Shown here in pieces: positions 12,001 through 45,687 of a stretch of 64,000 nt of DNA. Below the pieces are notes generated by a model. That model was not told the DNA's origin. It worked only from the letters and a program-made list of their open reading frames with translations, and did no database searches. Source of the stretch: an uncultured virus (IMG/VR IMGVR_UViG_3300035662_000013) (Duplodnaviria; Heunggongvirae; Uroviricota; Caudoviricetes); IMG/VR virus record IMGVR_UViG_3300035662_000013; one strand, written 5' to 3'. Numbering within the stretch: position 1 is the stretch's first letter; every line of letters starts with the position of its first letter. The translations under genes and the position numbers were made by a program.

Positions 12001-15000
12001 CTTTCCTTATCTTCAAGGGTCATTCTTTCAGTCCTTATTATTCCATTCTCATCTCTGAATTTAGAATAAAAAGATCTAAGTATGTCATCATATTCTGTCA
12101 TAAGCTCTTGTGTTGAAGGACTTATATTCTCTCTTAGCTTATAATACTCAGGAGTGAATATGCGCTCAACGTTAGCCTCCATCCAAGCATTCTTTTCTTT
12201 TTGGAATTCAGCGGCTTCTTTTTCATCAATAGGAATTGCTCCATGACCAGTTAATCCGTATCTGAAATTAAGGTCATTCATAAAGATATCGTAGTTCTTG
12301 TAGAACGAACCATACTTTAAGTCAGACAGAAGATATCCAGTTGTTTTGCCATTGTCATTTTTCTCCATATATCTAGAGAATGTAGCGTACTTTCTCTTAG
12401 CTCTAACAGCGTCCCATTTTTCTTTTAAACCAAGAATCACACCATCAGTCTCCATTGTGCGTCTAGCGTTCATCTTAGCCTCCTCAACCTTGGCAAATAG
12501 TATTCTATGCTGCTCCTTAGGAGACATCACCATCGCACCTACAAGCATTGTTAATTGACCTATGTCGTCGCTCTCGCTAAATACAGTCTGCTCTGAAGTG
12601 TCTGAAGATTTCTTGGTTATACCTTTAACTGTAGTGGATCTATAATTTAACCCCTCTCTCTTTATAGTATTGACATATTGATATTCATTTAGCCCGATAA
12701 GCATTGACTTGATATCATCAATCTCAGACCTAATCTTTCTTACGGTGGCAATAAGACTATCTATATCTTCTTTTGGGAAGCCCTTGGCTATAGACGGAGA
12801 GTCGTTTATAATTGTACTAATAGCAGCTGTTGCTGAGTCATACATAGATAGGAAGTTCTTAGATATATCGAATAACTGCTCATCATCAAGCCATTTGCCT
12901 GTGTTCTTAAGGACTACCATCTTATCAAGCTTGACTCTTACGTCTTTGATTTCATTTGCAGAGAATTCTATAAATTTAATCATGCCAACCATCGCCTCGT
13001 GTTTTTCAACGTCCTTTATTAGCAATTTCAATGAGTCTAGATAGGACTGAGTAACGTTCTTACTTCTCTCTGCTGTATGCAGCTTAGATTTCAATCCAGA
13101 AAGAACCCTATTCATTGTAGCCATTGCTGTAGACTTACTTAATTCATCCGATGTAACCATCTCTGAGTCAAGCATTCTATATGAGACATTAAATGAGTCT
13201 GGGCCTATATCAGCCATTCTGTCTACTGGAAACAAGACTACTGTATTTTCATCTATTTTAGACACAAGCATAGATGGAGTAAATCTCATAATAACGCCAA
13301 TAAACTCAGTTCTATCTGACTTAATTGTAATGGCGCCATCTCCAAGCCTACTAGCGGCCCTCAGAAATGCTATTACGTGAGAGTTTTTTAACCCATATAA
13401 AGTATCGTCAGTTGGGAATTGATATATATCATCAACTTTTTTAAACTCAAAGCGATTTCCTGTTTTTCCATCTTCTACTATTATATCTCTAGAAATAGAC
13501 ATTTTGTATAACTGATGAGAGAATGATGCTAAAATATATGCACAATCATTTTCTTTCTCAATTGAATATTCATTTATTCCATGCTCTATTGCTCTTTGCT
13601 TAGAAGTATCGCTTTTAAACAGATTAAGAAATTCAGCTATAGCTATGTTAGCTCCATTTATTCCCTTTATTTCATTTGTAATCGAGTCGACTGACTTTGC
13701 CATTAAGTCCTTATCCTCTAGAGATAATATATCAACAGCATTCTTTCCGTACAATACATAATCCAGCATATCTCCTATTGATATATATGGATTTATATCT
13801 GTTGGTATGGAGTTGTTTCCAAATATTCTTTTAATAGTCTCTGTCAGAGCTCTTAAAGCTCTAGACCATAAGTATGCTATCTTCCTATTCTCTCTATTGT
13901 TATATTCTTTTTCTATAGACCTAATAATTATTTCATCTCCTACAACTTCATCGTCATATGTTTTTATGGTCTTAGCGTCGTCAATATATGAATTGTTGAC
14001 AGCATTAACTATCTCTGTATTTTTCATTGCCTCCGCAAGTAACGCGTCATATATCTCTCTATGTTTTGGATCTGAGCTTGCTCTTAATGCAAACATCATT
14101 GGGTGACCAAACATTTCATGAATAATATAACTAGGCTTTATTGTATCGTAGAAAAATACAGCGCCTCCAGCTTTATAATATGCTCCTGTATTCATTGACT
14201 TAGAAACTCCATAAAACATAGATGTATTTCTATTCATAACATTGAACTTTACACCAAACCTTCTACTAAGGTCATCGGCTATTCTTACAATGGCCTTTAT
14301 TTGGCGTTTAGAGACGTTCTGAGCCACTTTCTCGGCAGACATGGAGGTTAGCCTATCCTCGTTATTTTGAGTGGCTGAAATCGCCTTAGAATCGGTCGTT
14401 TTTACAAATGCCTTAAATCCTTCTATATCCTGCTTAGAGCCTAAAATATGAATCTGCTCCTTATCGAATACGACGTATTGGTCATAACTCCCAAGCTTAT
14501 CTGAGAACTTATCATTTGTATTTGTCGCTATAATTCCATCATTAGAGCCTTCATTTATCTTTGCTTTTATATATTCAACAGACTCTTTATACTCTCCTTG
14601 GTACAATTTATCAGTAATATCTGGATTTTGTATGTTAACAAGTATAGCCTTTGTTTTTCCTGTAGTACCCTTATTTCTAGTCCATCTGTTTGCGAATTCA
14701 TCTGCAACACTTTTGATTGTGGCAAAAAATCCATGGAACCCACTAGTTCCAAACTCAGGATTGTTAAAATCTGCGGCAGGAGATCCTCCGTGGTATACAA
14801 TGTCTTTTACTTTGCTGTCTGGAAATATCGTTTCTAAATACCGTGAGTACTGTTCCTTTGTTCCAATTTTAGATAATTCTGGATTTTGCTCGAATACAGT
14901 ATTTATTCCGCTGTCATTTCCTGTTGATTTTTTCGGAAGAAGGTCGGATAGATATTTATCAGTAGTAATAACTTTTTCTTTTGGAAATTTACTTACCACT

Positions 15001-16049
15001 TCATTTATTTGAGCCTTCCATTCATTAATATCATACTTAACTCCTCTAGCATTAGCCCTGTCTTTGAATTCTTTATCAGTTAAGTTTATTACTCTATCAA
15101 ATGAAGACGAATTGTTTCTAAGTAAATTAGTGTTTGACGTGAACAGCATTTTACCAGATAAGGCGGCCTCTTTTTTGGCAGCATCAAACAGCCTCTGCAT
15201 CATATCGTTATACTCGACGTTCCATTGCATATTTCCGCCATCTTTCACTAAATGTTCGGCTACTTTATATTTTATCGCAATGGCGCTAACCTCTCTATTT
15301 ATCTCTTCTGCATAGTCGTCATCTAGAGAAATAAAACTATCGGCTCCATTGTTTTTAAGGAAACTTTTTCCTATAGTTGGATGTCCAAATAGAACAACAT
15401 CTGTCTGTTTAATCGAATTTGAAACTATAATCTCATCAGCCTCAGATAAGTCGGACAATCTCTCTTGTGTGCTATATACAGGAGTATCAAAATCAATCTC
15501 GCCTTGCAGCTCTTTTGGCTCATCCAGCTTAGTTATCCATATAACTCTACCTTTACTATTAGGGGACTTTTTAAACGATAAGGAGTATTTACCTTGGATG
15601 TCATTTCTAGACGACTTTTTATTAAACACCTCCTCTATGAATTTAGCCTCGCCTTTTTCATTGTCAGGAAACTTTGAGTATGGGAAGGTTAAGATATTTC
15701 CATCATCATTTAATAGATTTAGTTCTTTATATAAATCCCTATTTGTAGATATAGGCAATATTCCAGCTCCATTATTTACATTCTTCTCGTATTCAGCCTT
15801 ATACTTCTTATCTCCACTAAGTACAAATTTAGAATAGTTAAGTATATCCGGAGTGTCTAAATTTGGCTCTCCATTTGTTTTATCCCAAACTGCGTATGCA
15901 TGTTGCATAGCGAAGTCATCGACCCCGCTACGCTCATCACGCAATTCTTTGTATTTAAACTCATCAATAGTCATTGGTCGACCACCGAACGCTTGAACGA
16001 TCTTATTAAAATCATTCCTTATTTTTTTATCATTAATATTTGGGCACAT
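9018..16049 (-). CDS. Large virion-ejected polyvalent protein (2343 aa) with P-loop, ART-like and zincin modules
   Basis: Downstream of the virion RNAP, as in crAss-like phages. GHPTIGKS Walker A (15363-15386); IVYHGG...GFFAT...NIQNP...DGII...QYVVF ART-like module (about 14400-14910); HEMFGH (14103-14120); hydrophobic helices near the C-terminus. Confidence 0.8.
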   Translation of the reverse strand: MCPNINDKKIRNDFNKIVQAFGGRPMTIDEFKYKELRDERSGVDDFAMQHAYAVWDKTNGEPNLDTPDILNYSKFVLSGDKKYKAEYEKNVNNGAGILPISTNRDLYKELNLLNDDGNILTFPYSKFPDNEKGEAKFIEEVFNKKSSRNDIQGKYSLSFKKSPNSKGRVIWITKLDEPKELQGEIDFDTPVYSTQERLSDLSEADEIIVSNSIKQTDVVLFGHPTIGKSFLKNNGADSFISLDDDYAEEINREVSAIAIKYKVAEHLVKDGGNMQWNVEYNDMMQRLFDAAKKEAALSGKMLFTSNTNLLRNNSSSFDRVINLTDKEFKDRANARGVKYDINEWKAQINEVVSKFPKEKVITTDKYLSDLLPKKSTGNDSGINTVFEQNPELSKIGTKEQYSRYLETIFPDSKVKDIVYHGGSPAADFNNPEFGTSGFHGFFATIKSVADEFANRWTRNKGTTGKTKAILVNIQNPDITDKLYQGEYKESVEYIKAKINEGSNDGIIATNTNDKFSDKLGSYDQYVVFDKEQIHILGSKQDIEGFKAFVKTTDSKAISATQNNEDRLTSMSAEKVAQNVSKRQIKAIVRIADDLSRRFGVKFNVMNRNTSMFYGVSKSMNTGAYYKAGGAVFFYDTIKPSYIIHEMFGHPMMFALRASSDPKHREIYDALLAEAMKNTEIVNAVNNSYIDDAKTIKTYDDEVVGDEIIIRSIEKEYNNRENRKIAYLWSRALRALTETIKRIFGNNSIPTDINPYISIGDMLDYVLYGKNAVDILSLEDKDLMAKSVDSITNEIKGINGANIAIAEFLNLFKSDTSKQRAIEHGINEYSIEKENDCAYILASFSHQLYKMSISRDIIVEDGKTGNRFEFKKVDDIYQFPTDDTLYGLKNSHVIAFLRAASRLGDGAITIKSDRTEFIGVIMRFTPSMLVSKIDENTVVLFPVDRMADIGPDSFNVSYRMLDSEMVTSDELSKSTAMATMNRVLSGLKSKLHTAERSKNVTQSYLDSLKLLIKDVEKHEAMVGMIKFIEFSANEIKDVRVKLDKMVVLKNTGKWLDDEQLFDISKNFLSMYDSATAAISTIINDSPSIAKGFPKEDIDSLIATVRKIRSEIDDIKSMLIGLNEYQYVNTIKREGLNYRSTTVKGITKKSSDTSEQTVFSESDDIGQLTMLVGAMVMSPKEQHRILFAKVEEAKMNARRTMETDGVILGLKEKWDAVRAKRKYATFSRYMEKNDNGKTTGYLLSDLKYGSFYKNYDIFMNDLNFRYGLTGHGAIPIDEKEAAEFQKEKNAWMEANVERIFTPEYYKLRENISPSTQELMTEYDDILRSFYSKFRDENGIIRTERMTLEDKESLFDIKKRKEALSMLTYADGTPKTVGSYDYNVAIELQEFYKATTDGIKYKFNVDAFERAKENARKTLTAAEFKEWMKENTTVRLKDEFYEMISSSANEMQSEKWKELYQIRKDLLKYNRDMNTMEVIGTRVEANKHIAELIKRIDKKLSDTRVKTTSTARFKFKDIAEVVPNQAYNSEIERLSADKSSAGVNALNEFKKNSGYYNKKGKFTLYSHWSKIVPKNKSFIEISPNFIWQELDESSPLYNKDYDKSREKYGMQPKRSMYDNSKEYNRLTSNKEDKEFLEAYRSAMQKANENYFYMNRSNPNRLPQISTSFFAKVVRGSNWISGFIKALKDSMNYMPEDLFIGDSDSSGKYYADGTAVKHIPTRYRTMLEDTNMISRDLLGSFAMYYSSSLNFVEMSKVRGTIETILEGLRNVQIHDPKGKEVKTGGRMYQKAAEFVNSEVYGDDKVSALEFSISRGNIATSLYNMIRRMFNKEKVTSGRIGSVSVDKFIKAIISYTRIVNLGYNIKSIFSNFGGAKVQQKIEASMGSFFTEKGLMFANKEIALRLPSIVASSTNRSNDKITSLMRYFGITRSNESDMKNLHGWKFARYVEDKFWYGPYEAGDFAIKAPSMIAILDNFRLYEGEFYSREQFLTRFFPGAQRKEGAREWDLIKDTLYSAYSVADNNLVIDPKYAEYITPELENQVSLLSASMSRKLDGSLTGTERTAAHRNLVGSMMLLHKNYLLWAIQDRFHPKMYRYDLGVETSGIYRWGNLKTAPKIWMNMLFMKMSNVNEKYEYSQRYSAQRLAKEFTFFIALSAAATIFSKYAIGDDDDKIKESWEMLIYLLMARVTMEVGAMMSPSDVYNLQKEPFGTIGIITQGREILDMVGDGSYGDIVRTGHYEGFRKIDKSLLKIIPIAKQYQPYIGNPNFKKDDAFLNESMFIPYSRVRDFIWPENWNARAREKSKQLLQKKQDKENMLRDAGVDPEEIKRMRKKSEHIRDSIKREYGY

Positions 16050-16069: not shown

Positions 16070-19000
16070 TTAACATTTATCTGACGGTCTTTCATTTCCA
16101 ATCAGACTATTATTTGGTTTAAACGACTCAGGTATTTTAGTTCCATCAGCTGAAACTTGTTTTTTCTCTGAGTTTAATTTTTTAGTATTAGTAATTACAG
16201 TAGCAGTTCTACGAGCTCTAGATACAGCCGTATACAATGCTTTCCTGTAAATTAATCCATCAAAGTTTTTATCTATTCCTCTGAGGTCCGAATCAAGAAC
16301 AAGAACGTTTTGATATTCTCCGCCTTGAGCTTTGTGTACTGTAGATGCGTATGTAAATCCAATAGTTCTATCCTTTAAATTATTTGACGCATTTTCGTTA
16401 TCAGTTAAGCTATTTTTTATAGGTTTAAGCGTAATGAAATCTTTAGTCAATGCAATAAAGAAGTTTCTATTAGCCTCTCTTTTTTCTTGATAGTCCATAT
16501 TACTTATCTCCTGTTTCCGCTTAAGAATAGCCGCTCGTATTGCAAGCATATTCTCTTCGCTATAATCAGTTAATAAATTAAATACGCCTCCAGCGGAAGC
16601 ACCAGTAGTCATTCGTATTTCTATTGGAACAACTTTCAATGTTACTCCAGGCACTGCGTATGACGTAATCTCTCTAGGAGCTCCTATGCTGTCAACAACA
16701 TATTCATCGTCGTTCGCAACCAAGTCTACCTTTCCAGCCTTTATTTGACTATATCCTATGACTTGTTCTCCAACCTCAATCAATCCTTTCTTTCCTAATT
16801 TAGCTCTAACATAGGCATTCATTGAGTCTATTACATCATTTCTAAATGCCAATATCTTAGCGAAATTAACATCCTTAGAATAGTCTTCTGACGTAAAGAA
16901 CATATCAACAAATTGCTCTACTGCTTTCGCTCTATCAGCTTCGCCTACAAATACAACGCCGCCTTGGTCGTTAAATGCATCTCTCTTAGAGAAGATTGCT
17001 TTAGACTGGTCGGTAAAATTATATTCAGTTCCATTGATATTCATAAGCCCAGGAGCCTGATACATTCTCATAATACTTAATACATCTGCTAATGGATTTC
17101 CATTCGCAACACGCATAACCTTATTAAGAACTATGCTGGTTGGAGATTCTAACCCAATTGATTGTTTAGGCATTCCTTTTGCGTCAGTATTTCCAACAGG
17201 ATATAACTGAGCATGATCTCCAATAAACAATACTTTAGCTCCAGTAGCTTCCGCAACTTTAAGTATTTCATCTACACTCTTATCTGAGATTAAAGAAACC
17301 TCATCTATTATATATAGATCTACATTAGATTCATAATTAGTAGCTCCGCCAAACTCAAGCTTCATACCAACCTCTCTGGCCTCTGGGACTAATTGAAAGT
17401 AAGCATGATATGTTTTAGCTTTCTTGCCAGTAGCTCTAGATAATACACCTTTAGCTCTATGTGTTGGAGCTAATAATTGATATGTAATCTCAGCATTGCT
17501 AAGTGCATTTATAAGTACTCTAGTTATGGATGTTTTACCAGAACCAGCAGAGCCTAATAGCGAGAATGGGGTAGTTATTGTTTTATCTTTAACCCATGCT
17601 TCTATTGCTTTCAATGCAGCTTCTTGCTCATCGTTTAATTGATAAGGAATACCAATCTTACTTAAGTCAATATCTTTTCCAAATAGATTTATATCAGCTT
17701 CTGATGGAGTATCAGGCGTTACTTCACTAACGACAGCATTTTCACTTTTTGATTTCAATCTAGAATATGCCTTCTCTGCAGATAACATATTCATATTATT
17801 AAATTCGCCATTTCCTTGCTGATACATTGCCGAAGTCATTTTTCCGTCAACAAATCCAAAAGCATACGTAGTCCCAAATTCAGTGAATCTTTCTTGTGTC
17901 ACTTCCGGCTCGATAATTGCTTGTTCAGTATTTGATGTCTTCGTAAAATCATTTACCTTTAGACTACCATCCTCATTATAATACTTAAGCGAAACAACAC
18001 TGTTATGTCCTGCATAGCAATATACACAGCTACTTGCGCATTTATCATTATATCTTAATGCATCCACCTTATTCCCGTAGCAACTACAATCTTGTCTTTG
18101 ATTTCCTTGGACATGAGTAACATCAGTCCTTCCCATCGCAGCGTTTATAGATTGAACATTTAAACAACCTAATTTTTGAACTCCGTCTACGTTTACTTTT
18201 TCAGCACAAGAACTTAATTGTCGTATTCCATATTTCTTACAAAGATCGCGCATTTTAACACTTAATTCATCTATTATCTCCTGTTTAGCGCTAAATTTAA
18301 TATTGTCATTTGTTTTATATGCTGCAAAATCGTAGCCAAGTTCCTTCATTTTAGCTACTATAAATCTATCGTTTTTAGATCCTGAATAGCTATCCATTAC
18401 ACTGAACTTAATCTGCCTAATTCCCATTTCTGACGCTCTCTTTATTACACGCTCTACGTCATCAAAATTAGTAACTCCTGGAATGATAGGGTCAATCCTA
18501 ACTGTTATTAGATTTGGATTTAAAAGGCCTTCTTTTATAAATGTCTCAATCCTATCTAATAAGTCGTCGTATTTCATAACGCCTGGCTCATACTTAGTGC
18601 CGCCAAGAGTAGTTATGCTGAAGTGATAGAATTTAGGAATTTTTAATTCAGCCAATTCTTTCAATGGGAGTCCGTCATGTTTTGTTATAAGATACATTGC
18701 ATTTACCCCATTAGTCTTTCTGTTGGCTACAATTTCTTTTATTTTCTTAACATGGAATACTGGGTCTGACGTCTCGCTGGCTATAAGTATCTTAGGTTTT
18801 CCTCCATCATTAAATACTTCATTAACAGTTTCCTGGTCTTGCTTACTTAACGATTCTTGTTTTCCCTCTATAGATTTTATAGTAGACTCATGCTCTTCTT
18901 CACTAGCTGTAGTGTTTTCTTGATTTTTAAATGTATTTTCAAACACATCTCTAATAGCCTGTTTTGCGGCATTTTCTTTCTCTATTCCTAAATACTCTTT

Positions 19001-22000
19001 TCTTGGCTCCCACTGATTAGTAGTCTTATTTAAAGTATTATAGTTTTCAATATCTCTAGTACCAACGCCAGCGAAGTTCTTTGTGAGCATAGGAGTGCTT
19101 GTTGGGACAAACTTTCCTACAATCTTATCATCTTTTCGCATTTCCGGAACAAACCGCATCCATTGCTCAGAGGTTACATCCCATACATATACTGGCTTTC
19201 CTAATTGAACTCCTAATTGAACTGCAGTGTTTGTTCCGCCGAACACAGTTCCAGAATTAAATTTGGCATCTCCAGATATTTTTGCTATTGCAAATACAGC
19301 ATCTGCATTAGACACTTGATAATAATTTCTTACTTGCAGGTTGCCTTCTTTTGTATCCGGGTATTTCTTGCCTAGCAATTTCTCTATCTCAGTTCTAGCT
19401 TTATCCATCTGTTCCGTTGTAAGAACAGTGGCTTCAACTTTCTTATTTCTAAGCGCTTGAGATAAAGACTTATTATCTTCTTGTCTGTAATGCCTATTAT
19501 CAGTTACACCATATTCTCTACCAATTTGATCCCAGAAGGTGTCAGCACCATAAGCGCCACCAGAATGATTAGTGAATTCAGATGCAATCGAAATTGATTT
19601 AGCAGTAGACTTTTGATTAAACGTAACAATATACCTATTATCTGATTGACTAAAATTATTATTCTTTCTTATCTCTGTATATCCACTAAATCCAGCCTCT
19701 CTTACCATTTCAAAGAACTTATTCATAAGCTCTATTTTTTCTGGTGTTCCATTATTCAATATATCAAATGGAGATCCATATTTTTCCTGAAATGCTTTAT
19801 ATATCTTATCATAGGCCTCTGTATAGACAGACGTCCCATTGGGTAGTAATTCTGTTTTAAATAAGAAGTTATTTAGGCTTATTCGTTTTTTAGAAACATT
19901 ACTTCCATAATCCCTGGCCTCCTCTTCTGATGTGGAATAGAAATTATATTCTCTATTGTCTGCTACATCAGACTTTCTTCCTTGATATCCAGTAAGCGTG
20001 CTAGATTCGTTAATATTAGTTAAATCCTGTTCGCCTTCTGCTTCTGTAGTAAGATCTGCGTTTAATTCATCTCTAACCTCCATAAGAAGTCGAGGAAATT
20101 CAGTACTCCACTTGCCTTTATCTTGCGTATGAGTAAGTATTGCGTTCCCAGTTGCTAATAATTCTTGAAGTGCATCAGGGTTTTGTTTAAATGATTCTAG
20201 CAATAACTCTTTCATGATAGAAGAAGAGGCTTTATTCCATCTATCTACGTCCAAATGTTTAAATTGTCTTCCCAGGGCTTTGGCCTCAGCAGGGTTTTTA
20301 CTGTTCTGTATTTGTCCAGCCAGTTTCCAATTGAACTCATCATCCTCTTTTGACATCTCATTCCCAAAGCCTCCACCAGACAGCATTTGCGGCTGCCAGC
20401 TACCATCATCTCTTACATTTCCAGTATACGTGTATTTGGCTAATTGGAACGCTTGCTCTACGCTAGTAAAGCTGATATCTCCCTTAATCATATTCAGCCT
20501 AGAGGATCCTGTTGGCAAAGTAAATGGTCTTATTGCGAGATTACTTAAGTTTGCATTTTCTCCAGTACCAGCGTATATGTTAATGCTTCTAGCATTATTG
20601 CTAGGTTGCATTTCTACTTTCCTAATAAATTGTCCTAGATAGGCCTCTGCGCTTGTTTTAAGCTCTTCTAAGGCACTTTCTCTATCTTCCTGGGCAATTG
20701 TATTATCCGGTAAATTGAGTTCGTTAAAACGGCTTAAAATGCCTCTAGCGAATTCCTCCCTCATTGAGGCTATCCTTGCGCTATCTGTAATTCCAGCATC
20801 TTCTATAGCATTATCTAAATAAGACATAGAATAACTATTGTTATCTATTGCATTAGTCACTGCTTTATCTACTGTGCTAGCACCTAAGCTCTCAACGAAC
20901 TTATCTTCAAGACCCATAAACATATCAAACCAGCTTACTTTATCAAATCCAGCCTCTTTCGAGAATATAGATGAATTTATATTTGACTGTGGAAGTTCGT
21001 TTGTCTTTATTACAGAAGTCTTTGAATTAGACTCTATAAGTGCAAGACCAGATGCTTTGCTACCTTTTTTGTCAACAGCAACATATACTGGTTTAATAGA
21101 CACATCGCCTTTAGCATTAGACCTTGTCGAGTTTCCTATGTATTTATATAGTATTTCAAACTGTCTTCCATTGGTGCCTGTCTTGATTATCTTAACGAAT
21201 GGCTTAAATACTGGATGTTTTCCATCAGATGTAGATCCAATAGGTCTAGCAGCAGTGTCTATAAATTCCAATTCATATTCAATACCAAGCATCTTTTTAG
21301 TCGACATTTTCTTAGGTTTCTGATCTACTAATGGATGCCCATCTTCATCAAATTGACCTTTTCTTACTTTATATGCAGTGGTAGTTGGAACTAGTTCATT
21401 ATCCCACCATCTACTAATGAACAAATCTTCCAAGAATTTAACATCATTTTGAAGCGCTACTCCAGGAGTATGTTCATATGATAATTCATTCAGTTCCGTC
21501 AACACATCATCTATAAAGTCGTATAGTGCAATCTTGATTGGTGCTCCAGTATTAGCATCTACTAACCCTGAATTAATCTCCAGTGAAATTCTATCATCCT
21601 CAGATAATTTAACGTAATTTAATGCGCTATTGTCACCAGTGCTATAAAATTGATATAGTATGAATCTCTTAGCAAAATCCTTAAGCATAACCCTATCTTT
21701 ATTTCTAGATTTAAGTGCGCTTATTTCTTGTTCACTAAGGCCTTCTTGCGATTCATCTTCAAGTATTGGATTTAATAATTCAGAAAAATAGTACTTTATC
21801 TTCTCTTGAATATTTTTATCGTCCTTCGCAGATGAGTCTATAGTAACATGGTCTGGATAAGACTCCTCTGATTTACTATGCATAGTATATGACAATACCT
21901 TCAAGAAGACATTGTTTTCATATCCAGGTAAATGACCGTTATTTATAGCAGACTTGATATGGAATAATTCCTTAGCGACAGTGTCTTCTCCAAAGAACAA

Positions 22001-25000
22001 GCTATTTATATCTATATCGTTTTGTTCTGCATATTTTCTATAAAAAGAATCCTTAATTGCCGTCTCGACATACCTTGATACGCCATGCATGAATTTGCTA
22101 TTGTCAAAACCTTCTCTTCCTGCAAGTATATTTACTTTGTTAAGAATAGATAATACTTGTCTAGAGGTTCTAAATAATAAACCACGACTTATTCCTACTA
22201 TTAACCCAGAGCTATTTCTAAGCCTTGCCATCAATGGTGTAGATTCATAATAGTTTCTTACGCCACTAAATACAGACGTTCCATTATCATCATCCAATAT
22301 CAATGAATTTACTTTTGAAATAAACTCATTATTTGCTATAAATGATTTACCTTGTTTTTTGGTCTCAATTTGAGAGTATTTGACAAGCTCAGATAATTCG
22401 TTAGAATATGGAAGTAATTCTAAATAAGTTTCCATTACCAATATCTGGTGCAATAGATAATCAAAATTAGACAAGTCTTTATTTAGGCCAGACTTTAATT
22501 TAGATCTACTATTAAGTACATCTCCTGTCGGCATATCACGTCTACCATATTTATCTTCAACGAATAAAGATTCTACGTATTGAGCGTTTTTACCACCATC
22601 AATTCTAGCAGCCATAGCTCTATATTTCTGTAGCTTGTCCTTTATTACTTCATGCAACTTCTTAACAGAATCTTTATTTACTTCATATTTGCCATTAAAT
22701 TCTTCAACCTCAGCATAAGCCTCTTTTAAAGATGGTTGTGATAAGAAGTAGAATGCGTTTCCGCCAATACCAGCTCTAAGTAAGAATGCAACCATATTAA
22801 CAGTATGTTCATTAACACCTAGTCGTATGATATATGGATCTTTGGCAACGTCAACGTGAGCATTAATCATGGCAGATAGCCAGTCCAATATACGCATTCC
22901 GTCAGCTCCATATATTCCTCCAAGTTCAAATATTCCGTGTTTAGCGGCTGTCCTTTGTTTTGGATTTATAGTCAGATTAGTCATCTGCGTATAAATATGG
23001 TTTGTATTAGCAAGTGCCATTATACCCAAATTCTTCTTGCCTGTAGAATACTCAACTTTCTTATCTGTTTGATATGAAGGTGATGTAAACATAAGAGCTC
23101 CTCGCTTTTCTCCAGTGCCAGTAACTGAGTCTATGTCTGGAAGAATATCGTCCTTTATTACACTAGTAGTAGCATCTAATGGAAGCCTTGTTTCATGTAT
23201 AGAAGATGGCTCTGTTATTGCAGCCATCATTACATCCAACAATCTATTTTGGATAGCAGCATTTGAATTTACTTGCCATTTAGACTTCTCTGGATTCTTC
23301 TCACTTTTCTTGTTGTCATCAAACTCAACCTTTTCGAATCGACCAGCTGGGTTTTTAGCATAGTTATATCTAGCTAAATACAACTTGTCAACGTCAAAGT
23401 CAGAGCCTGTGAGCGCAGTGAATTCTGTTGGAAGAATTATAGTATCTCCAATTATCTTAGGGATAACATCTATAATCTTTAATGATGATACAGATGACAT
23501 ACCTTGAGTTGGAATACGATATCCTAATGCAGCAGGATCTGAGTCAGGACCGATTATATTATGCATTAAAAGCCAATCTCTTTGCTTAACTGGAGACATC
23601 AACTTAACATCCTCTGGCAAAACATCTTTAAATAATGATAGAGAAACGACACAATCCATGCTTCCGTCAGCATTCATGTAATTTAACTTTCTTCCACCAT
23701 TAAGCTTATATCCTTCGCTAGTTATGCTGTCTGTAAGTGTATTTATACCAAATGTAGACATCTGAATAAATGCACCACCTGGGGTATTGACATCAAGAGT
23801 CTTCTTCATAATAAATGAAACAAGTTTGCTCTCAATCCAATCTCTATCAGCCATGGCCTGAAGTGTTATCCTGCTATTTGGCTCAGCTGCCTTCATAAGG
23901 GTCTCGTAGACATCATCAGTCATATTAGACTTGATTGCCTCTGAATGCAAGAATCCGTATAATTTCTTTTTATCGAAAGTCAATACTCCGCCTTCGTATT
24001 TAATTCCTAATTCATTCTCTACATCATTTCTACCCCTATTAGATATCTCTGTTAATGCATTTGACCATTCCTCTATTAACTGTCTTCCTGTAGCACCTTT
24101 ATTTCCGCCTATTGTTATATTTGAATAAACTTTATCTGACACTATATTGGACATTGCAACTTTTTGAACCTGAGTTGCCAATCCAACCTCCTCTTCCTCG
24201 TGAGCTTCAGTTTCAAGCTGATGTCTAAGGAATTCAAAGTGCTGAATTTCTTCTGTAAACTTATCAAGGTTAGATACATTACCGTCTTTGTCAAAGAAGT
24301 CTATTGGATTATTATTCCCAGACTTAACAGCAGATGAGAATGCGACCATATCTATTTTGCTTGCACCATCTTCTGGATTGTTCATCCTTTCATATAGAGC
24401 TTTATTTGCACCTGTAGCGACAGATCTAAATAAACAGAACATTGCCATCTTGTCTAGTTTTGGAATATTTAACCCATTACTGAACTTATCTCCATAATAT
24501 ATCATCTTAAGCGGATTAAGAGCAAGCTCCATCACTTTTAGATATTTAGCAGAATCTTCCATCCAAGACATATCTTCTGATTCCAATAAATCAAATGCCT
24601 CATTTAAGTCTTCATTCCATCTTCCTAATTTTCTAAGTATATCTCTATACATAACAGGAGATATGAACACAGAAGCGTCTGTTTCATTTACTTTATTATA
24701 TCCAGCAGTCTGAGCATCAACTATATTCATTATCATTTTGATGTCTGATAACTTATTTATCTCGTCCATATTTCCAGAATTAATAGCCTCTAATATTTCA
24801 TTAAAAGTCATATTTAATTCATCGCCATGTCTTTCGTTTACATGAGCAGCAATCATCCTTGATTTTATCTCAGATAAATTAGGAGAAGGTATTTCATTGT
24901 CATTTAACTCAGCAGACACAAATGTGGATCTTCCTGTTTCAGATAAACATGGAGTACCTGTTGATAGTATAGAAGATAACCTTTTTATCTTAGCATCAGG

Positions 25001-28000
25001 ATCTTTATGGAATGCAGGGTCTTTTGAGAATATCTTTTCAAATTCTATTGTAGATATGGATGTGTTCACCATATGCTCAGCAACCATATTGTAAATAGCA
25101 GACGTGTCGGCATAGTCACTAACAAGAGATTCTTTTGAGTTTAAATTAGATTGTTTGATGAAGTAAGCTCTAGTATCTTTAAATATAGATTTATCTAGCT
25201 TCTTATTTTTATAGAATACGCCATTCTTTTTGTGCTGTACAGTTATAGCGCCATTCTTAACAAGCCACTTTAATTCTCTAGATATTGAATTAGCCAAGGT
25301 GGCATTCATTATTTGGAATTTAGTTTCATTTGATGCATTGAATATTTTACTATCCATTTCCTCAAAGAATCTAGTCATCCCATTAATTACTCCATATTGG
25401 TCTATCAATTCCTCTTGATATTCATTTAGATTTACAAATGAGCCGTCGCCTTTTATGTCAATAGAAATTTCATCGAAATGCCTAAATTTCATACCATTAC
25501 CAAGTCCTGAATTCCATTTGCCTTTTGTGGTATATTTATTTGCACCTCTTTGTGAGAATCCGCCGTAGTGATATGTTTGTTCTAGTTTATTTTTATTACC
25601 CATTGCAACCTTCCATGCACTCCAAGCATCCTGCATTGCAAGATATTCTGCCTCAAAGTATCCATTGAATATAGCTACTGTTTTTGTAGGGAATGTGATT
25701 GATTGTCTAACTAGCCCATCTTTCAATGAATTCATATCAACAGCAATAGGAGTTCCTTCTTGTTTAGATACGCTAAATGACGGCATTTTAATGCCAGCAA
25801 ACATGTACCACGATTTCTTATCAGCCATAGTAGGACATAACATATATCCAGAATTAGTGGCTGCCATTTTCATCATATAATCCTCCATAGGAGATAGTGC
25901 AAAGTAATCTCTACCTTTATCTCCAGAATTATCTTCATAGAATTTCAAGAATGTCTTAACCTTTAATCCCTTTGATTCACCTGATTGTAATTGGTCTAGT
26001 ACTATAGAGCCTCCAACAGTAGTTCTGTCTCCTTCGAAAGCTGCTCCTCCAATCCTGCCTGAAGCAAAACTAGATTGCATTACTTTATCCCTGTATTCAG
26101 TGTCAGTAGATATTCTTTCTGCCGTCTCTGTCACATAGTTTGGTAGAGATATCTCATATACCTTGGCTCCATCAGCCCCGGTAGAAGTGGTCTCTGTTAT
26201 ATTTGGATTGGCCTTGAAATACATCATAGCTATAAATCCTGTCGACTTCTGAGACTTGTAGATCTCTTTTCTATCTACCTTCTCTTTCCTGTTTACTATA
26301 AGCTTTCCATCATTCTTAACTAGGTCTGTTATGATGTTGGTAAGAACAAATGATGGGTGTTCTGGTTTTGATTGGGTGATTAAACTAGCTATAGCGTTTT
26401 TTCTAGATGCATTTGGATAAGAATGTTTGATTATCTCATCTATAGTTGCATCGTTTATAGATATGCCTATTTTATTAAATATATCAATATACTCATTAAT
26501 AGCAGCAGTAATTTGCTCGTCAGTAATCTTTTCAGCTTCTAGTGGATTTGTTAATCTACCGGCAAATGATACAAGTGCTTTATGTCTGGCTATTATAGAC
26601 TCGGCATTAGCCTTGTTAAATACTGGCCCATCAACACTATCAGAGAATAAAAATCCAATAGACATCATGTTCTCACCCCATTCTTTTGGCTTAGTTATCT
26701 TGGCAGTTGTAGCCTTTGACTCTATAACCCTAAGTCTTCTGTCGGCTTCAGCCATGTTTCCATTTTTGTCTCCAGTAAATGCTATACTCGCAAAGTCATG
26801 TCTATGACATTTTACTGCGGCAAAGAATGCTGTTTTAAATCTATCGCTAGAATTGTCAAGCTTATCTAATACGCTTCTATAGAATAAATTACCAGATACA
26901 ACACCAAGAGAATATATTTTATTCCTCATCTCGGTGTACGATTTCAAATGACCTAAATCGCTTGCAACTGTAACCCACGACGTGGTCTGGTCGTAGAATA
27001 ATTTAAAGCCAGTTAATGGGTTAAATTTATCTACAACAACACCGTCTGCATTTTTCTCTTTTTGAGGGATAGTCCATAAGAAGAATTTAACCTCCATTGG
27101 AATATTATCAGACTTAGGAACCTTATATGATTCTACTGTATGTTTAGCTATCTCGTTACTTACGATATCTTTATCGTTATCCTCTATTTCGTTTCCATCT
27201 ACATCGAATACAGCTGGGGCTATCCCAAATGAAGATAATTCTTTATTTATTAATGGAACTATTTCCTCATCAAATTTATCCAATATATCTTCATATATTT
27301 TATATTTCAATGTATCTTCCATTCCATTTTCTTCCATATATTCATACTCTGCAAGAATACTATCATATAGTACGTCTTTACTCATATTGCGGATATCAGA
27401 AACTTTTTCAACTCCAGATAATTCTATGAATGAGAATGCTAACCCCTTGGCTACTTCGTATTGCATATCCAATGTATTGATAGCATTGAATCCTTTTGAC
27501 TTCAAAGTTCTAGCAGCTCCATCTACATAGAATCTAGTAAAGAATTTAGATTGCTCAGATTTAGCCTTTGGACCTTTTTTGTTTTTAAATATACCGTATT
27601 CGATATCCTCAAATAATCTATTTATATCAGACTTGTTTGCAGACTTCATTCCAGTAAATAGGTTGGAGAATTTTCTGAATACAGATCTAAGCATCGGTAT
27701 CTTAATGCCGATCTTATTAGTCTCTCTCCATACTCTAAATTCCTCGGCTAAGTATTCCTCTATATCCTTATTTGTAGCATCACTCAATGATGGTATAGTA
27801 CGCCTAACTGAGTCATATATCATCATCCTTCTATTTCTTGGTATTAACCCAAGAGACACAATGTGAAATGCTTCGTGGTAAGCAGTGCCTCTTTCTGCGC
27901 CAGAGAATAGTGTAATAATATTCTTTAAGATGTTAGCTACACCCATAGCAATATCACCGTTCTCCATTTCAATTTCAGTATCACTGATTTCAATAAGAGA

Positions 28001-31000
28001 TGATATCCTTTTTCTAGCCCAAGCTTGTTCGCTATTAGTTAAATTATCTTCCTCTGCATGACTAGTTGACAGTCTTGTAGGACCAACAGCATTTACACCT
28101 AAGTCAGATATTTTATCTACATCGCCACTAGTCCTCTTCTTAAATTTCTTCTTACCAGAAACTTGCTCGCTAGCATCGCTTTTAAGGCCATTTTCAGGCG
28201 ATTCTAGCGACTTTTGAGTGTTAGTTGATGTTTCTACTACATCTGCTTTTTGCGTGTCAGAAACAGGCTCTAAAGCGGCTTCTTTGGCATCTGTCTTTTT
28301 CTTTGCAACTTTCTTGATAGTTGGCTTATCCATTCTATCTGCAAGCTCTACATCATTTAAGAATGTATACGGAGATTCAAAGATATCATCGGCAACGTCA
28401 GATATAAGCTTATCGTATTTAACAATCCAAGCTTCCCAGGTTAAACCTAAGTCCTCTCTCTTAATTTCCATTCCTTCAAAGAACTTAATTGATTTAGCTT
28501 CTGGATTAGATCTGAAGTAGTCGGTGATACCTGAAAACACATCAGCCACCTTTCTATTAGCTCCAGTTTGATTCCATAAGTCATGAGCATTGATAGACCA
28601 GTTAAAGTTATTCTTAATGTAGTCTATTATCTGAGCTTTAATTTCAGGAGATATTCCAGCTGGATTTGATATGTCAAACTTAGCTTCTCCTAGATATAGT
28701 GAATTGCCTTCTACGTAGAATTGCTTTGGAAGCAGGTGGGTCAACATTGGCAAGTCCTTCTTATTAATTTGAGTTCTTTTTCCAAAGTTAACTATCTTAG
28801 ACAATAAGCCTTCTGCTGATATACCTAACCTATTAGACGCACCGTCTCCGGCCAAAACAACATTTCCGTCTCGGTCTAACGCTAACTCACCTTTAGACAT
28901 GTTCCAGTCTATAAGTAGTTTGTATATAAATTCTGCAGTATCTTTATCTTCTGAGAATCTACGTTTATTTAATTTTATCTTTCTTTTAGTTCCAAGTACA
29001 GGGTCAATCTTTACTGCAAACATACTACCAGAGTTCTGTTCATCAGTATCACCTATCACTCCGTCAATTCCAACTACAGTAAAATTACCTCTCCACCCCC
29101 TACCGTAAGCTAAGCTTAATGTATTGTTGTTTATAGTAGAGAAATCTCCATTAAAGCCTTCTATTAGTCCTTTGATTTTAGACAGGCTTCTCTGTACCGG
29201 CTTACCATTCTTTCTGTTTAATTTTATCTTAGCTCTACCTATAGATACGCCAGATACAACTAATTCCTTATTAGAACCATTTGCTAAGCTTTCTGCATAT
29301 AAAGCTATTATCTTATTTCTAAAATCAACTAAATCAGCGATATCCTGTTCGTTGAACTTAGGATACATATTGCCATCAGAATCCTCAAACATGCTATTAA
29401 CTGCTATGTTGTGGAAGCTTATATTCAATGGTCTAACTACGCCATTTTTATCTTTTATTTTAACAAATATTGCAGCCTCGTTCCATGAATTAGGATTATT
29501 GATGTCGAATGGGATATAGTCTCCTGCGTCCTTTCTAGATTGTGGCACTTTATCAAAAGGTATTGTAGATATCTCTATTTCAAATGTAGCGCCTTCTAAG
29601 GCTTTTGGAGTTTTTAACCATTTAATTATTTCTGGATTAGACGTAAATAGTGTATGTGGCAATCTACCAAATCTAACTGAGACTTTATCCTCGTCAATTG
29701 TGCCAGGAGCCTCGTCATCTATATTTACAAAGTCAGAAGAATCCTCTTTCTCCATTGCAATAGATATAGCAGCAGCGCCTTTAACTATTTCTGATATCTC
29801 TTTAGACGCTTCTTTATTCTCTTCTTCCTCAGTCTTTTCTGGCTGATTAAGATCTTCTAAATCTTCATTGATATCGATCTCTTCTTCTTTCTTATATGTT
29901 CCAGCAACAATAGCTTTTACATCATCATTAGAATAGGCTATAACTTCCTCCTCTGATTGTGTACCTTCTGCAAAGTCTGCAGCCGAGTTATAAGCAGCTC
30001 TCCATTGTTTAGGGCTAATTCTATCAATAAGACCTGCAAGTACTGCATTTCCTTTCATAGCATCAGATGCATTAGATACTACATCTACGAATGATGTATA
30101 TCCAAGCTCCATAATAACCTCTAGTACCCCAGTCATTGCTGGTAAGAAGTCTTTGCTTGAATATTGCTTTCCAGTAGCATTCATTTTAGATCCAAGAACA
30201 TCCGTGGCAACATCAGCCAAGTGAGCTAGTCTAGCGTTTAATTTCTCCTTAAGCTCGTCTTGTTTGGATTTTTGTGGAGCAGCTTCTTGTGTGATTGGCT
30301 TATTATTTTCGGTGAATACTCCAAATACATATTGGCCGGGAATAGAAAATATTCCCTCATCGATAAGCATATCTGATATTTCATCCAGCTGCCTTACATT
30401 CCCGAATTTTGATTTAGGGAATGCGAATACAATCATCCTGCTAGCCCCTCTATGGCCGTGTCCAGAATTAATACTGTCCATTTGGCTTTGAATAGATTCT
30501 GTATTCCCAAACAATGATGTTCCATTTAGCCCATTCCTTATATCAAACCCTCTTGAAAGAATTTGTTCTAGCCCGACGATATCTGTTTGGTGAGTTACAT
30601 ATATAAAATTATCTGTATCTATTTTACTTAAGTCCAGCACTGGGTAAATTGTCCCATTATTTGTAATTCCTTGTGTGGGAGCCTGCTCCTCCTGATTATC
30701 TGCGGCCTGTTTAGCAGCCTCCTCCTCTTTATCGTAATCGCTAAATGGATCGAAGTTGTCATCTGCTAACAATTCCTCGGCTCTATTTACTGATGAGTTC
30801 AAGTCGGCCTCAGTTAATGGAGGAATATCTGTCTCGTCTAGTGGTGGAACTTGCTCTGTCTCTACTTCTGGAGCAGACTCTAGGCTTTCGTATTCAACTA
30901 TTTCAGGAGCAGATGGTATTTCCCACTTTGGCTCTAATGATTCCAATTCAACTACAATAGGTTCTACAACAGGCTCGGCTACTACAGTTGTTTCTGGCTT

Positions 31001-38491: not shown

Positions 38492-38982
38492 TATATTGAT
38501 GAATATCTAAATTTTGTTTTTATATATGGCAAAGAGAAATATTTTGAATCATGCGTAGTTCTTATAAACTCGTAATTGCATATTATAAATTTGTCCCTCA
38601 TCCTGTCAGCAAATAAGTCTGATGAAGCTCTTGGGATTGATAATTTATGTGTTCCTTCTCTGTTGTCGAAATCAGAGCTCGTTGATTGCAAGCTACTTTG
38701 CTTTGTATTAGTAAACCATGCATATGACGGTGGATTACTATTGTTATTTGTAAAATGCAATTCTACGTTATCAAAAGCCTTTGTTTCCGACGGATTAGTG
38801 TTTACAGAGAATGATACAAATTGTATATTATCTCCAACGTTATATCCGCCGTTAATGTTCTTTATCTCGCCTGTTTCATATATCCCATACGTATCTCCAT
38901 CTAAGTGGAATACTTCAATTGGATTAGAGTCGGCATATGTAGAAAATGCATCTATTTGTTCTGAAAATATTATGCTATTCAT
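38491..38982 (-). CDS. C-terminal portion of tail stabilisation/muzzle protein as a separate ORF
   Basis: IFSEQIDAFSTY, KAFDNVE and DRMRDK resemble the usual C-terminus of crAss stabilisation proteins. Coupled to the upstream ORF by TAATG. Confidence 0.55.
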   Translation of the reverse strand: MNSIIFSEQIDAFSTYADSNPIEVFHLDGDTYGIYETGEIKNINGGYNVGDNIQFVSFSVNTNPSETKAFDNVELHFTNNNSNPPSYAWFTNTKQSSLQSTSSDFDNREGTHKLSIPRASSDLFADRMRDKFIICNYEFIRTTHDSKYFSLPYIKTKFRYSSI

Positions 38983-43658: not shown

Positions 43659-43660
43659 AA

Positions 43661-44602
43661 TTATCTATTTTTATTGTATACTACTTCTCTGCTAGATATA
43701 TTGCTATAGAAATCATTGTCTGCAGTCATATCTGGAAGTAATCTGTTCCACACATTCTTTATGGTTTCCATTTCATCCTGGTTTGGCATCATTGATTCAG
43801 CATAAGCCTGTTTGCAATAGAACGCCCAAGATGTCTTGGCGTCAATATATATATCAGTCCTAATCTTTCCGCTTCTCCATTCCGGGTACGACAACTTCAT
43901 TACTATATACCAATATACTGCCTCTATATAAGAAAGCTTATCTGGTATCATTAGAAATCCATTCTCGTCTGTTATTTGCCTGTCGTAGCTTAATTTTAAG
44001 TATCCAGACGAAACATTGGTGTTTATGTATCCAGGTTTAATTGAATATACTAAATTGGAATTATCTACCTTAGTATTGTTTCCTGTATTTCTCTTGATCA
44101 TATTTGACAAGAGGGTTCTTACATTCTGGTTTGTATTAAGTATCTCGAGAGCCTTCTCATAGTCTACTTTAGAAAACCATGCATATACAGGATTCTCTTC
44201 GTATTTTTGATACAGTATTTTAACCATCTCTATCATGTCTGCATCTTTTACTACCATGTCCGATACGTCGTATGGGCTTGTTCCTGATTCAGACCATTTA
44301 TTGAATGATGATTGTGATACCTTCATTGGAAACCATGGGCCATTAGTTGATGTGCTGTAACCTACTTGATTTAAACGGAAAAGGCCAAACGGTAATTTCG
44401 CTTGGCTATTCTTTATCTCTAGGTATTCTTCTCCATCTACACCAGACACTGCTCTCTCTAGCTGCTTAACTGAGCCTATCTTTTCGACAGCCTCGCTAGC
44501 CCATTCAATCATATCTGCTATGCGCTGTGGATCTTCTTTTATGTCTAGGTCAGCAAGTACTTTTGATATAACTTGCATAACGCTAATTGTATTATAAATC
44601 AT
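43661..44602 (-). CDS. Tail ring/tubular protein (P22 gp4-like)
   Basis: VISKVLADL...EWASEAVEKIG and DENGFLMIPD...EAVYWYI...W.FY.KQAY motifs. Directly upstream of the muzzle gene. Confidence 0.75.
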   Translation of the reverse strand: MIYNTISVMQVISKVLADLDIKEDPQRIADMIEWASEAVEKIGSVKQLERAVSGVDGEEYLEIKNSQAKLPFGLFRLNQVGYSTSTNGPWFPMKVSQSSFNKWSESGTSPYDVSDMVVKDADMIEMVKILYQKYEENPVYAWFSKVDYEKALEILNTNQNVRTLLSNMIKRNTGNNTKVDNSNLVYSIKPGYINTNVSSGYLKLSYDRQITDENGFLMIPDKLSYIEAVYWYIVMKLSYPEWRSGKIRTDIYIDAKTSWAFYCKQAYAESMMPNQDEMETIKNVWNRLLPDMTADNDFYSNISSREVVYNKNR

Positions 44603-44603
44603 A

Positions 44604-45678: not shown

Positions 45679-45687
45679 GATGTATTA

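Follow-up and report, generated by a model that had tools for sequence, protein, structure and literature searches.

A NADAR domain within a giant virion-type RNA polymerase protein of a crassvirus, a candidate virion-delivered counter-defence enzyme

A giant open reading frame of 6070 aa (P0001, 16070..34282) in the stretch of 64,000 nucleotides analysed here (the window; all features described below lie on its minus strand) encodes a multidomain 'polyvalent' protein in which a virion-type RNA polymerase (RNAP) is joined to a NADAR domain (residues 4565–4741, 20060..20590). The domain is apparently an active ADP-ribose-removing enzyme, its catalytic residues being intact, and probably represents a ready-made counter-defence. 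On balance we lean towards a reading in which the domain is a catalytically competent N-glycohydrolase with a Glu-Lys-His site, delivered by the virion as part of the RNAP protein, that strips ribosyl adducts from the bases of phage nucleic acids. Counter-defence by phage NADARs has as such already been published in the form of AdfN; what is new here is the form built into a giant virion-type RNAP protein.

The NADAR domain and its active site

The match to the Pfam family PF08719 scores 49.4 bits against a curated cut-off of 35.1 (E 8.1e-13; 52.7 bits in the genome search), in agreement with the first-pass annotation, which had recognised a NADAR domain at this place, and the same residues are modelled in a YbiA-like alpha+beta fold. 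The defining pair of residues, a catalytic glutamate followed seven residues on by a phosphate-binding lysine, is present as Glu4609 in the motif SVEQ (codon 20456..20458; E43 of PnNADAR, E36 of T4 AdfN) and Lys4616 in QLAK (codon 20435..20437; K50 and K43, respectively), and both align to the E/K of 8bau, YbiA and T4 gp30.3. Each is kept in 148 of 149 family members, while a third residue, His4718, where the last strand ends (LTHTQD; codon 20129..20131; model strand 160–162), is kept in all 149, and this conservation persists at an overall identity of ∼50 per cent. In the column alignment His4718 shares its position with the histidine of T4 gp30.3/AdfN and with the YbiA-type glutamate, and the 'TH' of the crassvirus ILTHT aligns with the 'KH' of VLKHS in T4 gp30.3, so that the third catalytic position is a histidine. 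The domain therefore departs from YbiA and the Phytophthora NADAR (PDB 2b3w, 8bau), in which the last-strand residue is the family-defining glutamate (found in 8/8 Bacteroidota YbiA-like sequences), and it is embedded in a polyprotein, unlike either of them. DarT1-associated NADARs of the DarG1 and BC4488 type are described as carrying an aspartate in the last strand, where the crassvirus domain has its histidine, in an alignment that included no DarT1-linked sequence.

The closest functional likeness is to AdfN (T4 gp30.3 and the NADARs of Bas32 and Bas60; PMC11825919), likewise phage-encoded, which in T4 has the same Glu/Lys spacing and a histidine at the third catalytic position and is reported to hydrolyse ADPr-DNA with the same type of Glu-Lys-His triad. 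The crassvirus domain is predicted to be, like AdfN, a counter-defence hydrolase of base-linked ADP-ribose. In sequence the two resemble each other weakly (hhalign probability 71%, 55 columns); the gp30.3 family Phage_30_3 (PF08010) gives no match in the window at E<=0.01, and in 4 of 56 relatives it gives weak sub-threshold matches of 25–33 bits against a cut-off of 36. The general chemistry claimed in the first-pass annotation, removal of ADP-ribose from guanine, is borne out by published work, according to which every NADAR subtype tested in vitro does so and some also remove cytidine-ADPr. A loop insertion between helices 1 and 2 (residues 4625–4648, 20339..20410) is unusually long here, corresponds to gaps in the majority of the 149 sequences and is modelled at low confidence (pLDDT <50 at model residues 79–84).

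Architecture and distribution of the polymerase fusion

The frame of P0001 is open for 18.2 kb without an internal stop, its sole TAA being the terminal one. An assembly artefact was considered and rejected on the strength of this open frame and of the same architecture in GenBank cr130_1. Residues 3000–3643 (23354..25285) form an RNAP core homologous to phi14:2 gp66 (6vr4_A, E 1e-38), so that NADAR and a crAss-type virion polymerase do share one polypeptide, as had been proposed from the sequence, and the core contains the DxDxD metal motif as DFDVD (residues 3628–3632, 23387–23401). Both hallmarks of a crAss-type virion RNAP, homology to the solved polymerase and this motif, are thus present. 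The gene lies downstream of, and on the same strand as, a co-directional virion module with muzzle, ring protein, capsid, portal and terminase genes (38982..63522), which was identified by profile matches (crAss_MUZ 2e-175; Crass_capsid 3.5e-205; Ring 1 and Ring 2; PHROGs for portal, TerL and MCP). Its place after muzzle and tail genes and its two-barrel core with the DxDxD motif are those of the virion RNAP and cargo proteins of phi14:2 (gp66) and crAss001, and the phi14:2 homologue is described as a constituent of the virion, translocated together with the DNA. P0001 differs from these in its length, which is greater by a factor of about three, and in a C-terminal block of NADAR, a domain here called X, SLOG, DUF1848 and helicase; the characterised polymerases of phi14:2, crAss001 and DAC15 give no NADAR match.

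Disparate enzymatic domains in one polypeptide (RNAP, NADAR, SLOG-like, DUF1848 and SF1 helicase) are what characterises the polyvalent proteins that Iyer et al. 2017 describe from phages and from conjugative elements, among them N4 vRNAP, which likewise combine many unrelated activities in one injected chain, although that paper mentions no NADAR, SLOG or crAss. Shuffled architecture is a further likeness, and a possible zincin-like HExxH region would be another. The latter is the motif HEAFH (residues 2136–2140, 27863..27877), which marks a candidate zincin-like peptidase; Pfam and PHROG scans of its region yield no match, and the surrounding residues 2050–2400 are found again in the ORFs of 43 of 80 loci and in 28 of 150 representatives. 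Its position upstream of NADAR bears on a possible cleavage of the C-terminal part before packaging. Over residues 1–4200 Pfam and PHROGs return nothing, and an iterated profile of residues 1–2050 found no relatives among 230 NADAR-bearing sequences.

Directly after NADAR comes domain X (residues 4746–4900, 19582..20047), an ART-PolyVal-like lead (Atlas feature score 0.93) for which Pfam offers just DRAT at E 0.082 and whose single-sequence AF2 model has a pLDDT of 40.9. One homologue was found among the 230 NADAR-bearing sequences (P0062), likewise beside NADAR. Word-index searches found none among giant proteins (>3337 aa), proteins near its own length or longer proteins of <=2000 aa, and scanning viral sequences with the 505 aa that span NADAR, X and SLOG returned nothing. 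A second ART-PolyVal-like lead (14370–14867; Atlas 0.95) lies in the next gene, P0002 (9018..16049), a downstream co-directional ORF of 2343 aa that probably encodes another cargo protein and has no match in Pfam or PHROGs. No pairwise similarity links domain X with the ART-like stretch of P0002, and because Pfam supports ART-PolyVal in neither, the assignment stays a lead. The SLOG or DprA-like Rossmannoid domain (residues 4901–5032, 19187..19582; phrog_768 1.7e-10, cpYpsA E 0.082) starts 160 residues downstream of NADAR and is 50% identical to its cr130_1 counterpart. It is followed by a DUF1848 domain with the motif C-x3-C-x2-C (residues 5179–5424, 18011..18748; PF08902 3.7e-18) and a Dda/RecD-like SF1 helicase (residues 5548–6029, 16196..17641; AAA_30 5.2e-25, UvrD_C_2 1.2e-11, phrog_325 4e-58). 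A search of the 85.9-kb record for a Macro domain gave none. Within 330 aa on either side of NADAR, 56 dereplicated loci have an SF1 helicase in eight cases (and its C-terminal domain alone in two more), a cpYpsA SLOG in seven and an AlkB-like dioxygenase in three; in one relative (P0050) an RNase H abuts NADAR.

The clade comprises 138 contigs from IMG/VR and, at E<=1e-10, 502 cluster representatives, with only eight loci in 185,579 species genomes, every one in a MAG. Fusion of NADAR to RNAP is the rule in it: of 80 IMG/VR loci, 68 have the core in their NADAR-bearing ORF by an iterated RNAP-core profile, 62 of them with a DxDxD-like motif. Among 150 cluster representatives the figure is 64, and the 86 others are short (median 489 aa; just two of >=2000 aa). 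NADAR stands on the C-terminal side of the core in 55 loci and on the N-terminal side in 12, and in cr130_1 the order of NADAR and SLOG is inverted. A NADAR domain of ∼164 aa is present in cr126_1 and precisely missing from DAC15, DAC17, cr106_1 and the Kolpuevirus 'frurule', whose polymerases are otherwise 74–87% identical, and none occurs in the cultured crassviruses of the phage collection. Given this shuffled position and its clean absence from closely related cultured phages (DAC15, DAC17, 'frurule'), NADAR behaves as an accessory cassette. Riboflavin salvage or another housekeeping role was rejected, since the domain belongs to a polymerase gene in the virion module and comes and goes among closely related phages.

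Possible substrates and targets

In the mechanism that we favour, the NADAR domain sits between flexible linkers in the giant crassvirus RNAP protein, which may be made late, packed in the capsid and brought into the cell with the DNA; because it would enter with the DNA, the enzyme would be present ahead of any phage gene expression. It could then remove the ADP-ribosyl adducts, or related ribosyl ones, that transferases of host defence set on the exocyclic amines of nucleobases, in the incoming phage DNA or in the first transcripts, and adduct removal would leave the template legible to the polymerase delivered with it. The domain would work beside nucleic-acid enzymes, namely the SF1 helicase in this phage and AlkB-like or RNase H domains in relatives. 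AdfNs differ in this respect, being small stand-alone proteins produced after infection, whereas the crassvirus NADAR is a domain of a 6070-aa, presumably late protein with virion-packed relatives.

The likely host phylum was sampled with 401 Bacteroidota genomes. All 24 DarT loci examined there were Macro-linked (DarTG2 type) and 0/24 were NADAR-linked, so that no DarT1-NADAR was found; this is the only established system with a nucleic-acid target, and the failure to find it in the sample counts against the favoured reading. Among ten host NADAR loci examined, five are abutted by a PRTase-CE gene and a sixth by a remnant of one, and some NADAR loci adjoin nSTAND, OLD or PIN genes. The crassvirus NADAR profile brings in host antitoxin-type NADARs no nearer than housekeeping YbiA-like ones, and an origin as an 'orphan antitoxin' is thus not indicated; descent from a host PRTase-linked NADAR was rejected on the lower scores of these sequences with the profile.

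The first-pass annotation had proposed a pre-loaded anti-DarT1 activity, that is, an AdfN that takes the ADP-ribose placed by DarT1 off guanines in the incoming DNA. It is well founded insofar as AdfNs from three unrelated phage groups are reported to neutralise DarTG1 (Johannesman et al. 2025), all tested NADAR subtypes hydrolyse guanine-ADPr, the E/K/H residues match those of T4 AdfN and four of the 56 relatives give weak gp30.3-family matches; its specificity for DarT1 is weak, however, given the host census, and AdfN differs in targeting a system that was not found in the sampled Bacteroidota. Among the window ORFs scanned there is also no DarT match beside NADAR, which sits within the RNAP gene. 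As a specifically anti-DarT1 factor the domain is thus rather unlikely. Somewhat less likely still is a phage-borne copy of a host antitoxin that cleaves phosphoribosyl adducts and counters DS-32-like PRTase-NADAR systems or the PRTase effectors of type III-A retrons. Such a role would be in keeping with YbiA, which cleaves N-(5-phosphoribosyl)amino pyrimidines. The PRTase-CE genes beside host NADARs would fit it too, PRTase with NADAR being described as the validated defence system DS-32 and PRTase-CE as accompanying retrons of type III-A, a type frequent in Bacteroidota, but the pair is rare (5–6/401 genomes) and PRTase-linked NADARs score lower with the crassvirus profile (E 6e-8 to 3e-4) than YbiA-like ones (1e-14 to 1e-8).

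The neighbouring domains might suggest other targets. Iyer et al. 2022 make the case that soluble ADPr derivatives are what NADAR and SLOG domains of phages mostly act on, an argument that, with SLOG 160 residues away, stands against a nucleic-acid substrate; NADAR and SLOG might together break down soluble immune signals derived from NAD, or toxic derivatives of ADPr, as proposed there for phage proteins of the two kinds. The seven loci with SLOG within 330 aa are consistent with this, yet 49 of the 56 have none, the commoner neighbours of NADAR act on nucleic acids and the published accounts consulted report no NADAR that cleaves a signalling nucleotide, which makes signal degradation about as improbable as a role against PRTases. 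Finally, NADAR might serve as an antidote or editor for ADP-ribosyltransferases that the phage itself injects, keeping its DNA or polymerase free of ADP-ribose in the manner of DarT-NADAR and YarT-YbiA. ART-NADAR pairs of this kind have been described, ART-PolyVal-like leads stand right after NADAR and in the next gene, and sub-threshold ART-PolyVal Pfam matches occur near NADAR in 2/56 loci; against this, Pfam supports the assignment in neither protein, and because domain X has its single homologue in 230 sequences the conservation of NADAR cannot depend on it. Self-protection is accordingly very unlikely.

Implications for crassvirus infection

A broader and speculative possibility, which we hold to be doubtful, is that crassvirus virion polymerases carry swappable base-adduct-reversal modules (His-type NADAR, AlkB-like dioxygenase, RNase H, SF1 helicase and a radical-SAM-like DUF1848), by which the enzyme, once ejected, would clean the template in the course of transcription; NADAR would in that case be aimed at ribosyl-transferring defences of Bacteroidota, such as DS-32-like PRTase-NADAR systems and retron PRTase effectors, and not at DarT1. 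A parallel is seen in replicase polyproteins with Macro, NADAR or AlkB, described as joining an adduct-removing domain (NADAR, Macro) to a viral polymerase polyprotein, although these belong to eukaryotic RNA viruses. Plant-virus replicases carry AlkB.

A large clade of NADAR-RNAP fusions contradicts the published view of phage NADARs as typically stand-alone (Iyer et al. 2022). The presence of the domain in cr126_1 and its absence from cultured Bacteroides phages constitute a natural experiment, and the host census redirects the search for a target, with DarTG2 and PRTase-NADAR found and DarT1-NADAR not; it could also help to assign the substrate of DS-32-type systems. Placed in a protein whose relatives accompany the DNA into the cell, AdfN-type chemistry could be at work ahead of the first transcript, the moment of greatest exposure for a phage that relies on a polymerase of its own. 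If the swappable-module reading were true, these virions would deliver, as protein, a transcription-coupled counter-defence repair machine.

A NADAR domain within a crassvirus polymerase frame

The window belongs to a crassvirus. Pfam identifies a crassvirus capsid protein (3.5e-205), a muzzle protein (2e-175) and ring proteins 1 and 2, and PHROGs adds a portal, a large terminase and a major head protein; every one of them is encoded on the minus strand. The whole IMG/VR virus record comprises 85,865 bases, with an estimated completeness of 83 per cent. On the 3' side of the virion genes, and on the same strand, come two ORFs (750 and 646 aa), after them a giant ORF of 6070 aa (16070..34282, minus strand) that has no internal stops under table 11, and then an ORF of 2343 aa (9018..16049, minus strand).

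The first-pass annotation had placed a NADAR domain at 20060..20590, fused to an ejected RNA polymerase. This interval maps to residues 4565–4741 of the giant ORF, where every string it quoted was found, and the fusion holds: residues 3000–3643 of the ORF align with the virion RNA polymerase of phi14:2 (6vr4, E 1e-38), and the ORF carries DFDVD at residues 3628–3632. The NADAR scores 49.4 bits in Pfam against a cut-off of 35.1 (E 8.1e-13), and a 30-sequence family profile recovers E. coli YbiA (1.6e-14) and the Phytophthora NADAR (1.9e-12) from the PDB. An AlphaFold model from the 30-sequence alignment (pLDDT 86.4, pTM 0.83) has confident Foldseek matches to 8bau and 2b3w only; loop 4625–4648 of the window's domain is unusually long and of low model confidence.

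Across the window's NADAR and 148 relatives (149 sequences, identity ∼50 per cent overall), Glu4609 and Lys4616 are each conserved in 148 sequences, His4718 in all 149 and Asp4721 in 143, while the flanks are Ser/Thr/Pro/Gln-rich and poorly conserved, as would be expected of linkers. Glu4609 and Lys4616 are the counterparts of E43/K50 in the Phytophthora NADAR and E36/K43 in T4 AdfN, residues reported to contact ADP-ribose and to be important for activity. Published NADAR types differ in a last-strand residue, which is Glu in YbiA, Asp in DarT1-linked proteins and His in T4-type phage NADARs. Because His4718 shares its column in a joint alignment with the Glu of YbiA-like proteins (8 of 8 from Bacteroidota) and the His of T4 gp30.3, the active site is of the Glu-Lys-His kind; the T4 NADAR, of this same kind, is reported to strip ADP-ribose off DNA.

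C-terminal of the NADAR lie an orphan domain of ∼155 aa (domain X), a SLOG/DprA-like domain, DUF1848 and a Dda/RecD-like SF1 helicase. Domain X (residues 4746–4900; 19582–20047, minus strand) abuts the NADAR. Its protein-language features resemble those of ART-PolyVal clusters (0.93), its only Pfam match is a weak one to DRAT (E 0.082), and its single homologue, at 29 per cent identity (residues 1150–1257 of the NADAR-bearing representative P0062), abuts a NADAR as well. Since its final motif seems to be without a Glu, domain X is possibly an inactive ART. DUF1848 (residues 5179–5424; 18011–18748, minus strand) has close to its end a C-x3-C-x2-C, the spacing typical of radical-SAM clusters. 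It rarely accompanies NADAR, doing so in 3 of the 150 representatives and in a single ORF of the 80 loci. The giant protein has a single strongly hydrophobic, transmembrane-like stretch, close to the N-terminus (residues 253–271; 33470–33526, minus strand), and residues 1–2050 have no relatives among 230 NADAR-bearing sequences. The ORF also has an HEAFH motif, in a region that recurs among relatives. The C-terminal block may be cleaved off, possibly by autoprocessing of the sort suggested by Iyer et al. (2017).

Distribution and turnover of the fusion

A library search returned 924 cluster representatives at E ≤ 1e-3, of which 502 reach 1e-10 and 105 reach 1e-30. Iterated profile searching placed the RNAP catalytic region in 64 of the best 150, with a DxDxD-like motif in 61 of these; the remaining 86 are probably fragments, being short (median 489 aa, only 2 of at least 2000 aa). 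In IMG/VR a relative is encoded on 138 contigs. Of the 80 loci kept, 73 have an open frame of 1400 aa or more around NADAR, and 68 have the RNAP core in the NADAR frame. Three of the seven loci with shorter frames are truncated by the contig end, and two (L058 and L077) have many in-frame TAG codons, which makes recoding probable. Prokaryotes, sampled as one genome for each of 185,579 species, gave just eight loci, all in MAGs of assorted phyla and most simply read as mis-binned phage contigs.

The fusion also stands uncommented in GenBank: cr130_1 gp79 (5801 aa, annotated 'DprA-like') has parts as in the window, and cr126_1 gp003, a 'DUF1768 domain-containing protein', adjoins an RNAP subunit. 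TAG is recoded in cr130_1, given that the gp79 gene (L002 1–16626) holds 70 in-frame TAG and ends in TAA; its homologue in the window has none. The nearest non-crassvirus relative of the NADAR (36–38 per cent identity) is in Bacillus phage vB_BspM_AgentSmith (46400–46786; H3/H91), where the annotation gives a toprim domain protein, and may be another fusion.

NADAR lies on the C-terminal side of the RNAP core in 55 loci and on its N-terminal side in 12, and in cr130_1 SLOG precedes NADAR, the inverse of the window. The cr126_1 polymerase is 74–87 per cent identical along its entire remaining length to those of Kolpuevirus and relatives (Kolpuevirus 'frurule' and the cultured Bacteroides phages DAC15 and DAC17); over its N-terminal 253 residues the flanks alone match (267 nt in the record against 759 nt in the query), so ∼164 NADAR-holding residues are missing from these three. 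The comparison (L001 14842–15600 against H83–H88) shows the ∼164 aa to be cleanly absent from cr106_1 as well. The cultured phages in this comparison are without NADAR, and because such close polymerases exist without it, the domain is dispensable for polymerase function. It behaves as an accessory cassette that is gained and lost over short evolutionary distances, as is typical of counter-defence genes.

Neighbouring domains and candidate targets

Pfam searches of the 330 aa on either side of NADAR covered 56 of 57 dereplicated loci, the omitted one being a 44-aa frame. An SF1 helicase was near NADAR in 8 of the 56 (2 more have its C-terminal domain alone), a cpYpsA SLOG in 7, DUF7831 in 4, an AlkB-like 2OG-Fe(II) oxygenase in 3 and, below threshold, ART-PolyVal in 2. 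The ten largest representatives of up to 5000 aa include five with a helicase and one with an RNase H abutting NADAR. Because nucleic acids are what helicases, AlkB-like oxygenases and RNase H work on, these neighbours point towards a nucleic-acid substrate; the SLOG and ART neighbours speak for ADP-ribose chemistry generally. In the three crassvirus polymerase proteins with the oxygenase (L006, L055, L039) it immediately precedes NADAR, an RNase H domain adjoins NADAR in P0050 (1772–1935), and DUF7831 (PF25176) is repeatedly beside it (L004, L010, L016, L041; P0048, P0138; E down to 9e-36).

That the domain degrades soluble signals together with SLOG would suit the SLOG neighbours, and is quite unlikely given the nucleic-acid enzymes alongside. 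It might instead be an antidote to the phage's own ARTs. The 2343-aa ORF has an ART-PolyVal-like stretch at residues 395–560 (14370–14867, minus strand; Atlas 0.95, 27 of 30 matches), in which Pfam detects no ART-PolyVal, and the phage, like T4 with its Alt, may eject an ADP-ribosyltransferase of its own; we consider the antidote role very improbable.

Bacteroidota are reported as the hosts of crAss-like phages and are the probable host phylum here. In 401 genomes from the phylum of a MAG titled Bacteroidota, DarT (PF14487) has 39 matches in 34 genomes and NADAR likewise occurs in 34, and no DarT was found beside a NADAR with PF14487, a search with no positive control for DarT1 detection. Four genomes have both, on separate contigs or 240 kb apart. 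All 24 of the strongest DarT loci (24 of the 39 matches were examined) have a Macro-domain neighbour and are therefore assigned to DarTG2, which makes a thymidine adduct that by published accounts resists NADARs. The first-pass annotation had proposed a pre-loaded anti-DarT1 activity. An intact NADAR with a T4-type site in the RNAP ORF agrees with that proposal; the lack of any DarT–NADAR pair in these genomes tells against its choice of target, and a specifically anti-DarT1 role is unlikely.

Ten loci with NADARs of a lower-scoring class were examined; five have an abutting PRTase-CE gene (L117, L118, L119, L121, L122) and a sixth has a remnant (L120); PRTase-CE exceeds its cut-off in 30 of the 401 genomes. 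Some of the paired loci stand beside nSTAND (nSTAND3), OLD-family or PIN genes, and in one Bacteroidota genome a stand-alone NADAR has as its neighbour a Kinase-PolyVal protein (1.7e-58; L123 3082–3762). The pairs look like relatives of E. coli DS-32, a PRTase and NADAR pair reported as an experimentally validated defence system, and PRTase-CE is reported to accompany type III-A retrons, frequent in Bacteroidota. As PRTase-CE pairs were seen and DarT–NADAR pairs were not, the NADAR-paired toxin of the probable host phylum appears to be a phosphoribosyltransferase rather than DarT1. The crassvirus profile matches YbiA-like NADARs at E 1e-14 to 1e-8 and PRTase-linked ones less well, at 6e-8 to 3e-4, so ancestry is no pointer to the target, and we regard an anti-PRTase function as quite unlikely.

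A proposed virion-delivered N-glycohydrolase

Action of NADARs on guanine and cytidine adducts and phage NADARs as anti-DarTG1 factors are both described in the published accounts. Iyer et al. (2022) expected packaging to be frequent among NADAR, Macro and Nudix proteins, and described phage NADARs as typically stand-alone. The text of the polyvalent-protein paper (Iyer et al. 2017) has no NADAR, SLOG or crAss, and that of Yutin (2021) no YbiA or ADP-ribos. No literature linking crAss-like phages to DUF1768 was found, and that linking them to NADAR has, by titles and abstract openings, nothing on this fusion. The crassvirus NADAR–RNAP fusion is real, widespread and barely remarked.

Gene position, together with the phi14:2 and crAss001 literature, suggests that the NADAR is packaged in the virion, and its activity and substrate class are predicted. 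The evidence best fits a virion-delivered N-glycohydrolase that clears ribosyl adducts from nucleobases, a predicted function that is mechanistically plausible and in concept partly anticipated. The nucleobases would be those of the incoming genome or the first transcripts, and the step protected would be early transcription by the phage's own ejected polymerase, on which such phages depend.
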